Below, one piece after another: positions 41,275-42,591 of a DNA stretch of 64,000 nucleotides; position 1 is the stretch's first letter; each line of letters begins with the position of its first letter. The stretch is from an uncultured Clostridia bacterium (GTDB lineage: Bacteria > Bacillota > Clostridia > TANB77 > CAG-508). The notes beneath the pieces are model-generated. The model saw nothing but the letters and a program-made list of their open reading frames with translations, did not search any database and had not been told where the DNA came from. The DNA lies in the NCBI GenBank assembly GCA_949745595.1, contig CATJWN010000042.1, forward strand, positions 6,381 through 70,380. Reading direction: 5' to 3'. Position numbers and translations under genes: made by a program.

Positions 41275-41670
41275 CTATAATTTAATTCCATAAACTTGAT
41301 TTATACCTATTTGGTCTATTGGTCTATTAGCACCTTTATATAATAACATTGCCAAAATGTTAGTTAAATTTTCTTTAGTTACTGATACTTTAATACTAGC
41401 ATTGTAACTTCCTGAAAATGGTGCATCATATCCTTCTTCCAAAAAAGCTCCGTGCCCGCTATTAAAATTGTCATCAAAATTTGTTGACAATACAGCAGTA
41501 TCTCCTTCGCCCCAACCAAGACTTTCTACTATAATAAAATCATAATTTTGTATATTATCCTTTAATGGAATTAAATATATTTTTTTAAGTTCATAATCAT
41601 TTGGAAAATGCCATTGTTCATTAAGCAATGGCACTCTTTTATATTTTTTATTTTCTCCTGGAAGTAACAT
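41275..41670 (-). CDS. Hypothetical phage accessory protein (downstream of leader cassette A)
   Basis: ORF 41275..41673. ATG 41670 overlaps the leader stop (TGATG). Confidence 0.55.
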   Translation of the reverse strand: MLLPGENKKYKRVPLLNEQWHFPNDYELKKIYLIPLKDNIQNYDFIIVESLGWGEGDTAVLSTNFDDNFNSGHGAFLEEGYDAPFSGSYNASIKVSVTKENLTNILAMLLYKGANRPIDQIGINQVYGIKL

Positions 41671-41777
41671 CACTCATCACCCCCAGTTTTTTCTTCTTTT
41701 AAATAACTATCCGTGTGTGTGTGTGTGTGTGTGTGTACAGCCACAACACTTACACGACTTGATTTGTTTCTTTTCAT
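41670..41777 (-). CDS. Leader ORF A (35 codons) containing a (CA)12-encoded His-Thr repeat
   Basis: MKRNKSSRVSVVAVHTHTHTHTDSYLKEEKTGGDE. Its ATG shares one nt with the holin stop (TAATG), and its TGA shares one nt with the next ATG. Confidence 0.35.
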   Translation of the reverse strand: MKRNKSSRVSVVAVHTHTHTHTDSYLKEEKTGGDE

Positions 41778-41790
41778 TACTTGTCCTCCT
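41674..41790 (-). repeat. Copy A of a duplicated cassette of about 117 bp
   Basis: Near-identical to 42476..42591. From aactatcc through cttgtcctcct there is a single mismatch. Confidence 0.9.
41713..41736. repeat. Perfect (GT)12 dinucleotide microsatellite
   Basis: 24 nt of uninterrupted GT on the plus strand. Confidence 0.97.
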
Positions 41791-42097
41791 TTTTTAATTT
41801 TATAGGTGGCAATTTTAAGCAGTTATCTACTAAAAGCTCTATGCCGTGATTTCCTCCTAATGCTTGATACTGTTTTAATAAATCAGTCAAACAGTACCTG
41901 GCATAATCTGGCAAATATCCCATTTCTGTGTATTTCTCTACTTTGCTTGTAATCTGACTTCTAAGTAAGCTTATCATTGCTAACCTTATTGCTTCATTAG
42001 ATTTGTCATTTTCTTTTAATTTTTGAGATATAAAAGTAAAAATACCTGTGCAGATTACAGGTATTCCCCATTGTAATATTATTTTTAAAATATCCAT
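41777..42097 (-). CDS. Putative holin (Hol44 / holin superfamily V-like)
   Basis: 106 aa. N-terminal TM ILQWGIPVICTGIFTFI and a YQALGGNHG motif. Position just upstream of the endolysin region. Confidence 0.5.
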   Translation of the reverse strand: MDILKIILQWGIPVICTGIFTFISQKLKENDKSNEAIRLAMISLLRSQITSKVEKYTEMGYLPDYARYCLTDLLKQYQALGGNHGIELLVDNCLKLPPIKLKKEDK

Positions 42098-42135
42098 TTT
42101 TTCTCCTTTGCATTAAATATCTCATTTTGAAATAT

Positions 42136-42474
42136 TTATAAAATACTATATTTCACAAAACCTCTTTCTAGATTGATTTTTATTTCTTGATTTGTTGGTA
42201 AACTTATAAAAATTTTACCTTCAACGTTAATCGTACAAGTTGCTAAGTAGTCTTTTGCTGTGTCTGCGTTCCTTGTAAATATTGGAAAATAAATATCTTT
42301 TTGAGGTCTATATTCCTCAGGAATTGTTCCAATTAAATTATTTTGCCAATTAACAAATATTAATTGTTTAGAAGAATTTATATTTATTTCGACCTCACTT
42401 TCAATTTTTCTGTATTCAAATCCTTCAACTAAAATATTCCATCCATCTTTTTTTATTTCTTCTGAGAGTTTCAT
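42136..42474 (-). CDS. Hypothetical phage accessory protein (downstream of leader cassette B)
   Basis: 112 aa. Its ATG overlaps the leader stop (ATGA). Confidence 0.55.
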   Translation of the reverse strand: MKLSEEIKKDGWNILVEGFEYRKIESEVEININSSKQLIFVNWQNNLIGTIPEEYRPQKDIYFPIFTRNADTAKDYLATCTINVEGKIFISLPTNQEIKINLERGFVKYSIL

Positions 42475-42578
42475 TTCATCACCCCCAGCTTTTCATCTTT
42501 TAATGAACTATCCGTGTGTGTGTGTGTGTGTGTGTGTACAGCCACAACACTTACACGACTTGATTTGTTTCTTTTCAT
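42471..42578 (-). CDS. Leader ORF B (35 codons) containing a (CA)12-encoded His-Thr repeat
   Basis: MKRNKSSRVSVVAVHTHTHTHTDSSLKDEKLGVMK. AGGAGG lies 7 nt upstream. Confidence 0.35.
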   Translation of the reverse strand: MKRNKSSRVSVVAVHTHTHTHTDSSLKDEKLGVMK

Positions 42579-42591
42579 CACTTGTCCTCCT
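42476..42591 (-). repeat. Copy B of the duplicated cassette of about 117 bp
   Basis: See copy A. The two microsatellites are 801 bp apart. Confidence 0.9.
42514..42537. repeat. Perfect (GT)12 dinucleotide microsatellite
   Basis: 24 nt of uninterrupted GT on the plus strand. Confidence 0.97.

Follow-up and report, generated by a model that had tools for sequence, protein, structure and literature searches.

Duplicated dinucleotide-repeat leader cassettes in a Clostridia prophage: candidate translational phase switches in the tail-fibre and lysis region

Why would a prophage keep two copies of a long and perfect dinucleotide repeat, each inside a tiny open reading frame (ORF) and each placed directly before a small gene? 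The question is raised by a 64,000-nucleotide stretch of DNA from an uncultured Clostridia bacterium (contig CATJWN010000042.1 of assembly GCA_949745595.1), here called the window, meaning the whole stretch that was analyzed. Two nearly identical cassettes, A and B, precede the genes ORF131 and ORF112, respectively, in the tail-fibre and lysis region of a prophage (Table 1). The answer favored here is that each cassette probably acts as a stochastic, heritable on/off switch of translation, that is, a contingency locus, in which the number of repeats decides whether translation of the leader is coupled to that of the following gene. From the sequences we infer both that expression depends on the phase of the repeat and what role the proteins may have.

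Anatomy, phase and variability of the repeats

The two tracts are the sole dinucleotide arrays that Tandem Repeats Finder reports in the 64 kb, and both are 100% perfect (GT)12 on the plus strand. Pattern counts agree, with ten overlapping matches to (GT)8, all of them inside the two tracts, against 0.00 expected from 100 dinucleotide-preserving shuffles, and the two methods place the tracts where the initial annotation had read them. They belong to a direct repeat of 106 nt (41689-41794 and 42490-42595; 95% identity, ungapped, spacing of 801 nt). In a gapped alignment, an 88-nt core running from AAGGAGG to GGATAGTT has a single mismatch, an A/G difference right before the ATG, but the 3′ tails carry several substitutions and small indels before a common CTGGGGGTGATGA. 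The earlier description of one mismatch in about 95 bp is therefore accurate for the core, and somewhat generous for the full 117 nt.

Read on the minus strand, each cassette consists of a Shine-Dalgarno (SD) sequence AGGAGG, 7 nt, the leader ATG, MKRNKSSRVSVVAV, four His-Thr pairs encoded by the repeat, and a short tail. Stop and start codons overlap at both leaders and at the end of the gene upstream of cassette A, exactly as first annotated. Leader A starts on the stop of that gene (TAATG, with the TAA at 41777-41779 and the ATG at 41775-41777), its own TGA (41670-41672) overlaps the ATG of ORF131 (41668-41670) in TGATG, and the TGA of leader B (42471-42473) overlaps the ATG of ORF112 (42472-42474) in ATGA. 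The leader peptide has been called as a gene on nine public contigs, including length variants of 33 and 37 aa.

Only one of the three possible phases of the repeat brings the leader to the next gene. According to the translation of natural alleles, a number of repeats divisible by three (n = 9, 12 or 15) lets the leader read up to the next start, with its stop at +1 (copy B) or −2 (copy A) of the downstream ATG. With n = 8 or 11 the leader ends in ...HG at a GGA-TAG directly after the repeat, 36 nt (copy B) or 39 nt (copy A) ahead of the ATG, and with n = 10 or 13 it ends at a TAA at −31, the n = 13 form reading ...RIVI. The frames that had been predicted for 11 and 13 repeats are found in nature: n = 11 alleles of copy B stop 36 nt before ORF112, and copy A alleles stop 39 nt (n = 8 or 11) or 31 nt (n = 13) before ORF131. 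The further claim that a single phase reaches the downstream start is borne out by these alleles as well as by diverged cassettes that keep the layout, including some built on (TA)n. A frameshift fusion of the leader to the downstream gene was rejected for the window, given that both alternative frames meet stops.

The length of the tracts is highly variable among relatives. These were taken as contigs encoding exactly the same neighboring proteins, which amount to more than 12 independent assemblies of one prophage, and all tract lengths were read from assembled consensus contigs. Nine contigs (L003, L005, L007, L008 and L039-L043) show no substitution relative to the window over 772-2013 aligned nt and one or two gap openings each, which are taken to be differences in tract length. 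Their alleles have 11, 13 or 14 units in copy A and 10, 11 or 12 in copy B, where the window has 12 in both. Among these sequences, length therefore changes far faster than single bases are substituted, and contingency loci are defined by this pattern. Slightly more distant relatives add 8, 9 and 15 units and an interrupted (AC)6(GC)3 tract. The total range among close relatives is thus 8-15, with 8, 11, 12, 13, 14 and 15 units in copy A, and 9, 10, 11, 12 and 15 units plus the interrupted tract in copy B. In-frame and out-of-frame states both exist at each copy, and the two copies behave differently, since the in-frame phase accounts for 10 of 14 contigs at copy B (P = 0.004 relative to an expected third) and for only 3-4 of 13 at copy A.

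Some tracts have decayed. The interrupted (AC)6(GC)3 is found in copy B of L002 (2567-2584) and L010 (2989-3006), and a (TA)5CA tract lies in L038, upstream of the ORF112 homologue at position 653. Both types sit in a phase whose leader reaches the hairpin described in the next section, which would look like a switch fixed in the ON state in these lineages.

Several contigs also record rearrangements at the cassettes. The tail of copy A carries copy B sequence in L001 and L004, so that the two copies exchange sequence, which suggests gene conversion. Contig L006 continues from cassette A back into ORF112 (3304-3756), either through a tandem duplication of the 801-nt unit or through an assembly loop across the direct repeat. 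The protein P0006 joins ~83 N-terminal residues of the 106-aa protein encoded between the cassettes to ORF131 from residue 8 onward, in a fusion of 147 aa that implies a deletion variant without cassette A.

Other roles for the cassette were considered. Rfam gave no credible match for the cassette RNA, promoter-like sites are not above chance at the cassettes, and no terminator lies between either leader and its gene. The repeat as a promoter spacer was rejected, since every −10-like element is, by our own reading of the sequence, much too distant for that. The GU-rich leader codons CGUGUAAGUGUUGUGGCUGU flanking the tracts (41737-41757 and 42538-42558, minus strand) are predicted to pair with (AC)n in the RNA. 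This second hairpin was also rejected as part of the mechanism, because it is missing from the (TA)n and IMG/VR cassettes presented below, and it might affect slippage rates or leader translation in this lineage.

A predicted hairpin over the downstream start and the proposed switch

How could the phase of a separate mini-ORF matter to the gene behind it? RNA folding with RNAfold, applied to positions −22 to +25 of each start and with 48 SD-bearing ORF starts of the window as background, offers a possible answer. The downstream SD CUGGGGGU is predicted to pair with codons 2-5 of its own gene, ACUUCCAG in ORF131 and ACUCUCAG in ORF112, in a hairpin that spans about −16 to +13 relative to the start. 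The leader stop falls in the loop of both hairpins, together with the ORF112 start in hairpin B and with the first bases of the start of ORF131 in hairpin A. These are the two most stable of the 48 initiation regions (−13.4 kcal/mol for ORF131, rank 1; −9.8 kcal/mol for ORF112, rank 2; mean −3.0 ± 2.8). The initiation regions of the leaders themselves are open (−1.2 kcal/mol in A, −4.1 kcal/mol in B), and those of neighboring genes range from 0 to −2.8 kcal/mol.

Among the three leader frames, only that of n ≡ 0 (mod 3) runs through the predicted hairpin. Based on a footprint estimate made for this analysis, a ribosome stopped at −31 to −39 should not reach the structure, while one ending at −2 or +1 must, if the model holds, have melted it and would be placed for re-initiation. 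The delivery of ribosomes to the downstream start thereby becomes a concrete mechanism.

The hairpin recurs beyond the window. Across 11 variants of cassette-controlled starts, before at least six unrelated genes, the predicted energies range from −9.8 to −17.8 kcal/mol, and all six bases of the SD core are paired in 10 of them (five of six in L011). Position 3 of the SD forms A-U, G-U or G-C pairs in the different variants, and never A-C. An informative case is L060, which encodes two paralogues of 40% identity, ORF158 and ORF160, with near-identical N-termini (MSEPKIL and MSEPLIL). The start of ORF158, which has no cassette, folds at −0.1 kcal/mol, versus −14.2 kcal/mol for ORF160, which has one, and the SD-complementary CCUCU is present in ORF160 only. 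The folding predictions thus indicate that the occluding hairpin is specific to cassette-controlled genes.

In the mechanism proposed here, slippage in (AC)n during DNA replication would shift the frame in which a well-initiated leader mini-ORF is read. In the n ≡ 0 (mod 3) state, ribosomes would travel about 35 nt further, through the hairpin formed by the SD and codons 2-5, and termination on the start codon (ATGA or TGATG) would open the site and permit re-initiation, turning the gene ON. When n ≡ 1 or 2, the leader would end at the conserved TAA or TAG, 31-39 nt upstream. A ribosome terminating there presumably does not reach the hairpin, which starts at about −16, and the site would stay closed, leaving the gene OFF or at a low level. 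The two cassettes would switch independently, giving four expression states per prophage. The switched genes would code for small accessory proteins of the tail-fibre/lysis region, at least one of them a homologue of a tail-fibre distal domain, and the likely outcome would be a heterogeneous set of tail-fibre tips with effects on adsorption or host range. The slipped-strand phase switch acting through leader coupling, as suggested in the initial annotation, is supported by the hypervariable tracts, the occurrence of both states and the conserved three-frame layout, and the predicted hairpin, which that annotation did not mention, strengthens it further.

The same design is found in related phages with other sequences. 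Homologues of ORF131 and ORF112 (76-89% identity) occur in the same layout on short Logan contigs, derived from SRA runs. There the leader begins with MKTLKALLQ and (TA)n replaces (AC)n, with n = 8-13 between samples, while the CGGATA junction behind the repeat and the SD hairpin are the same. In front of ORF131 homologues, two of the three (TA)n phases lead to a stop, either at GGA-TAA or, by our own reading of the sequence, 22 nt before the start. Besides these, (AC)n cassettes precede other unrelated small genes, namely ORF125 (L022), ORF124 (L030, L036 and L038) and ORF127 (L011), and L011 keeps the order of cassette, gene, homologue of the 106-aa protein and cassette. The three-frame layout is also kept with a different junction (AAGTAGTT or GAGTAGTT), and a TAATG stop/start overlap is seen in L033 and in the IMG/VR types.

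These IMG/VR types form a more distant group (L053-L062), retrieved with a pattern of repeat and junction. Their leader is M(K/R)NTVSLGAV(HT)n with n = 11-18, and its frames end at AAG-TAG at −37, at TAA at −27 or, in the third frame, at TAATG on the start. The hairpins range from −14 to −17 kcal/mol, and by their frame three alleles are ON and seven OFF. A match in IMG/VR to the analogous (TA)n pattern was discarded as an unrelated element with a fixed (TA)6.

Homologues of ORF112 have mosaic first ~10 codons (MKLSEE, MTLPEE or MELPGE), which match those at the start of other cargo genes. The cassette thus reaches into the cargo itself, whose 5′ end provides the 3′ arm of the hairpin. The mosaic ends and the exchange between copies would fit a portable cassette. 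A wider proposal, put forward only tentatively, is that a cassette of gut Clostridia phages has been placed by recombination before alternative tail-fibre tip genes, its independent copies generating combinatorial and heritable variation in host recognition. With the same reserve, its parts would be a strong SD, a leader mini-ORF, a dinucleotide repeat, a stop trap in two frames and an SD-occluding hairpin that reaches into the codons of the cargo.

Two other types of repeat-bearing mini-ORF came to light. A different (AC)n leader is found on nine contigs, L012-L016 and L018-L021 (e.g. L013, 7870-8100, minus strand), which are gut metagenome contigs, mostly labelled as human gut. It consists of GAGGAG, an ATG and the peptide MNKPANCCGC(TH)n, with n = 8, 10, 11 or 14, and has the 12-mer TGTTGTGGCTGT in common with the window cassette, in another frame. 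This leader lies after a class I aldolase gene and is followed by a strong 16-bp intrinsic terminator, beyond which a 1008-aa protein with a pilin-like N-terminus and a PT-HINT domain is encoded. By our own reading, only the n ≡ 0 frame, which is not among the observed alleles, would bring ribosomes within ~8 nt of the terminator. In its sequence layout, the L013 type looks like a direct analogue of the pil1 attenuation switch of Streptococcus gallolyticus. The other type, a mini-ORF of L017 (581-640, minus strand) encoding MKNLVTVVAV(HT)n, has an (AC)10 tract and shares the 12-mer; it lies in a chromosomal context, downstream of what we read from the translations as plsX- and acpP-like genes.

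Could the tracts simply be neutral, hypermutable microsatellites in short spacers, with incidental leaders and with genes translated from their own SDs whatever the phase? This is unlikely, even if the downstream SDs GGGGGUGAU are near consensus and well spaced, stops in other frames are common by chance in DNA of 30% G+C, and copy A has no excess of in-frame alleles. The full layout has been kept across cassettes that share little sequence and use two repeat units, the occluding hairpin is found only at cassette-controlled genes, copy B is enriched in the in-frame phase, and both decayed tracts are in the hairpin-reaching phase. Alternatively, the phase might act on the mRNA, with the early leader stop exposing it to Rho or RNases (polarity), so that the OFF state lowers the transcript and the hairpin is irrelevant. 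The precedent of S. gallolyticus is indeed transcriptional (PMC3894217), and the L013-type leader precedes a true intrinsic terminator. The hairpins of the window, however, have no U-tract behind them and contain the SD and the start codon, no terminator-like site lies between leader and gene, and the untranslated gap in the OFF phase is only 31-39 nt, all of which makes an effect on the mRNA quite unlikely.

The cassettes might also serve mainly as patches of homology, portable linkers used to swap, duplicate or delete the adjoining small genes, with the repeat as a by-product. The presence of the same cassette before at least six unrelated genes, the mosaic first codons of the ORF112 homologues, the copy B sequence in the copy A tail of L001 and L004, the passage from copy A to ORF112 in L006 and the P0006 fusion, apparently formed by deletion, would all agree with such a role. 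As a full account it is improbable, because it leaves unexplained the long perfect dinucleotide tract, of either kind, at a constant position, together with the frame-arranged stops and the occluded downstream SD; as a second property, it could exist alongside the switch without taking its place. Finally, a function of the His-Thr repeat peptide itself, for instance in metal binding or in the modulation of lysis, could be read into its in-frame length variants of 33, 35 and 37 aa. It is highly improbable, given that related cassettes encode Tyr-Ile repeats, that the peptide is cut short directly behind the repeat in 9 of 13 alleles of copy A, that the L013 type reads the same nucleotides in another frame, and that the leader tails differ between the two copies.

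A number of points weigh against the translational switch and its link to tail fibres. The tract lengths come from consensus assemblies, so that the polymorphism is one between assemblies, and short-read assemblies could have swapped lengths between the two near-identical copies. The ends of contigs at the cassettes were rejected as evidence of heterogeneity within samples, since the duplication of 88-106 nt alone explains the breaks. The hairpin is a prediction, and its variation is mostly one-sided (G-C to G-U), because the 5′ arm must stay a Shine-Dalgarno sequence. With strong SDs of their own, the downstream genes may be reduced rather than silent in the OFF state. Nor is the overlap of stop and start universal: in the L001 and L004 variants of copy A the in-phase leader runs 20 nt into the gene before it stops, in L011 it runs ~14 nt into it, and in the (TA)n cassettes ahead of ORF131 homologues leader and gene form an in-frame fusion. 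These exceptions indicate that the conserved trait is the passage of ribosomes through the hairpin and not the stop-start overlap. As for the cargo, ORF112 belongs to no family, with no match in Pfam, NCBIfam or PADLOC and only weak ones in PHROGs (among them the C-terminus of a minor tail protein, E = 0.006). The connection of ORF131 with tail fibres depends on a single remote homologue, and AlphaFold2 models built on alignments of 5-6 sequences have a predicted local distance difference test (pLDDT) score of 41 and 49, too poor for use.

Controlled genes and genomic setting

What, then, would be switched? The proteins encoded by ORF112, ORF131 and ORF130, the last of which lies upstream of cassette B, have almost no relatives in two very large protein collections (5-6 for ORF131, and for ORF112 no more than 5 in a set of 5.8 billion proteins). 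Pfam, NCBIfam, PADLOC and PHROGs yielded no usable match to the three of them, sequence searches of the PDB were empty, and the three are unlike each other beyond the first ~11 residues, which belong to the cassette. The most useful similarity is that of ORF131 to the C-terminus of P0017, a protein of 310 aa (residues 192-309; 32% identity over 125 aa; library E = 1.5e-5, pairwise 8e-13). P0017 resembles tail-fibre PHROGs in its middle region and is encoded behind two large genes (1587 and 497 aa).

The gene order in L060 is a tail protein, a 113-aa ORF, a collagen-like tail fibre, ORF158, the (AC)n switch, ORF160, two holin-like genes and an amidase. The switch in this phage would thus govern the second, paralogous copy of a gene located right after the fibre. 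On these sequence relationships, it is proposed with moderate confidence that the cargo consists of alternative fibre-distal or fibre-accessory proteins, in which case the switches would diversify adsorption properties, and a role in tail-fibre function or host range is plausible. It is also possible that the cargo acts instead in superinfection exclusion or in the timing of lysis.

The 106-aa protein encoded between the cassettes matches phrog_4105, of "unknown function" (E = 4e-18), and has no match in Pfam or NCBIfam, while tblastn against phages returned hypothetical proteins only. Its position near the putative lysin and its apparent hydrophobic helix are no more than suggestive of a holin.

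The window has a G+C content of ~30%. A siphovirus-type prophage occupies its minus strand from ~39.4 kb to the right end, with genes for an SPP1-like portal, minor capsid protein 2, Gp15 and a putative tape-measure protein, and the host side, to the left, includes a major facilitator superfamily (MFS) transporter and uvrB. In the direction of the minus strand, a 1099-aa tail protein is followed by ORFs of 81 and 107 aa, ORF130, cassette B and ORF112. Next come the 106-aa membrane protein, cassette A, ORF131, ORF93 and a 423-aa C39-like peptidase, the putative lysin. The initiation region of ORF130 is open (−2.8 kcal/mol).

Table 1. Position of the cassettes, their parts and the adjoining genes in the window
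Feature	Position	Strand	Remarks
Cassette B	about 42462-42591	-	
Shine-Dalgarno AGGAGG, leader B	42586-42591	-	7 nt ahead of the leader ATG; mostly unpaired in the predicted fold
Leader mini-ORF B	42471-42578	-	35 aa, MKRNKSSRVSVVAV(HT)4DSSLKDEKLGVMK
(AC)12 tract, copy B	42514-42537	-	(GT)12 on the plus strand
Stop-codon trap, copy B	TAG 42508-42510; TAA 42500-42502	-	TAG for n ≡ 2, TAA for n ≡ 1 (mod 3); from sequence
Predicted hairpin B	42462-42488	-	SD arm CUGGGGGU (42481-42488) with ACUCUCAG (42462-42469, ORF112 codons 2-5)
ORF112	42136-42474	-	Gene behind copy B
106-aa protein	41777-42097	-	Between the cassettes; apparent N-terminal hydrophobic helix (own reading); putative holin
Cassette A	about 41658-41790	-	
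Shine-Dalgarno AGGAGG, leader A	41785-41790	-	7 nt ahead of the leader ATG
Leader mini-ORF A	41670-41777	-	35 aa, MKRNKSSRVSVVAVHTHTHTHTDSYLKEEKTGGDE
(AC)12 tract, copy A	41713-41736	-	Tandem Repeats Finder and pattern match
Stop-codon trap, copy A	TAG 41707-41709; TAA 41699-41701	-	Natural alleles end there
Predicted hairpin A	41658-41686	-	CUGGGGGUGAU (41676-41686) with GUUACUUCCAG (41658-41668)
ORF131	41275-41670	-	Gene behind copy A; free-standing homologue of a tail-fibre C-terminal domain
ORF130	42594-42986	-	Small gene directly upstream of cassette B, without a leader; context and control, outside the switch

The cassette core is present in a single reference genome among those of 185,579 species, a metagenome-assembled genome of an uncultured Clostridia bacterium, whose prophage is 92% identical over 6 kb. 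Near-identical prophages are carried by gut metagenomes, with mouse gut among the record names. Annotated phage genomes gave no match by DNA similarity and none with the ORF131 protein as query. IMG/VR contained no match to the 29-mer or the 20-mer of the leader core, and locus searches guided by the 106-aa protein found none in IMG/VR or the JGI metagenomes.

The small genes between the 1099-aa tail protein and ORF130 (43119-43687, minus strand) also differ among near-identical prophages: ORF107 is replaced by a 150-aa ORF in L045, and ORF81 and ORF107 by a single 168-aa gene call in L049. The putative endolysin (39702-40973, minus strand) is a Peptidase_C39_2 protein with an apparent N-terminal membrane anchor, and related phages have M23/ChW or amidase lysins at this position instead of C39_2. 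Directly beyond the prophage, the host side carries a gene for another C39_2 protein (37251-37961, plus strand). The prophage also encodes a ParB N-terminal domain fused to an N6/N4 DNA methylase (61390-62697, minus strand).

Significance and relation to known systems

Is this arrangement a new one? Full-text literature searches found no description of it, in agreement with the initial view that it has not been described for phages, and a 2025 review of phase variation makes no mention of dinucleotide repeats, leader peptides or translational coupling. Phase variation driven by repeats is a textbook strategy of bacteria, and in phages it is a recent and rare observation, involving homopolymers inside genes. 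If the proposed switch is real, it would represent a distinct design, where the slippery repeat sits in a tiny upstream ORF and works by way of translational coupling and a masked ribosome-binding site, the cargo stays undamaged and any gene could be made switchable. Under the wider and more tentative proposal made above, the cassettes would do at the level of translation what leader-peptide attenuation does for transcription, and would add to DNA inversion and diversity-generating retroelements a third way of switching tail fibres. The modular spread of the cassettes in uncultured gut phages, always next to tail-fibre genes, suggests a general means by which temperate gut phages may hedge their bets on host recognition. 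For metagenomics, these cassettes mean broken short-read assemblies and "hypothetical" gene calls of 20-45 aa with varying length. The compact design, of ~130 nt, could be reused as a synthetic stochastic switch.

The closest described mechanism is the leader-peptide switch of pil1 from S. gallolyticus, where GCAGA repeats in a leader peptide set the position at which the ribosome stops relative to a hairpin (Danne et al. 2014, PMC3894217). A short leader places the stop 39 bp ahead of the hairpin, which is melted when the leader is long (PMC3894217). In both systems a simple repeat lies in a short upstream leader ORF, and its number decides whether the ribosome stops before the hairpin or within or after it. 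However, pil1 uses a pentanucleotide repeat and an intrinsic transcription terminator in a chromosomal pilus operon. Here, by contrast, the repeats are dinucleotides, (AC)n or (TA)n, and the hairpin lacks a U-tract and holds the SD and the start codon, so that control would be translational. The leader stop also overlaps the start, and the cassette is duplicated, portable and found in phage genomes. Membership in the pil1 family thus fails on one defining feature, because the hairpin here would be a mask over a ribosome-binding site and is not a transcription terminator, although the logic is the same.

Among phages, polyG tracts have been described as contingency loci in Campylobacter phages (Sørensen et al. 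2021, as cited in PMC12823448), and homopolymeric simple sequence repeats (SSRs) in T2, T4 and other phages (Gomez et al. 2025, PMC12633550). The latter study found SSRs to be under-represented in tail-fibre genes (PMC12633550). As in these cases, slippage-prone repeats would give rise to heritable and reversible heterogeneity in a phage population. There, however, homopolymers inside the affected gene shift the frame of that gene, whereas ORF112 and ORF131 would never be frameshifted, because the repeat sits in a separate upstream mini-ORF.

In bacteria, the intragenic switches of Helicobacter pylori use CT/AG dinucleotides. Similarly to these and to the tetranucleotide switches of Haemophilus influenzae, a unit that is not a multiple of three yields one ON phase and two that are OFF. 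A table that assigns ON or OFF to each repeat number is given in PMC6479036. In those systems the repeats are located in the 5′ end of the controlled gene itself, and not in a separate mini-ORF as in the window. The lex2A/lex2B pair of H. influenzae, in which a small repeat-bearing ORF precedes the enzyme gene, may be a closer analogue.

Translational coupling of this kind is known from the RNA phage MS2, where local structure closes the downstream site until the upstream ORF is translated. The cassettes would share with it a downstream site closed by structure, together with a stop/start overlap (ATGA, TGATG or TAATG). To our knowledge, the known couplings with an occluded site are fixed wiring that sets expression ratios. 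In the cassettes, on the contrary, the repeat would destabilize the upstream frame, turning the coupling into a heritable random switch.

Tail-fibre switching has been described through DNA inversion, as in phages Mu (Gin) and P1 (Cin), and through diversity-generating retroelements (both as cited in PMC12823448). The outcome would be of the same type, a stochastic variation in host recognition, provided that the controlled genes are alternative fibre tips. The means would be different, with neither an invertase, inverted repeats nor a reverse transcriptase, and with replication slippage and translational coupling in their place.

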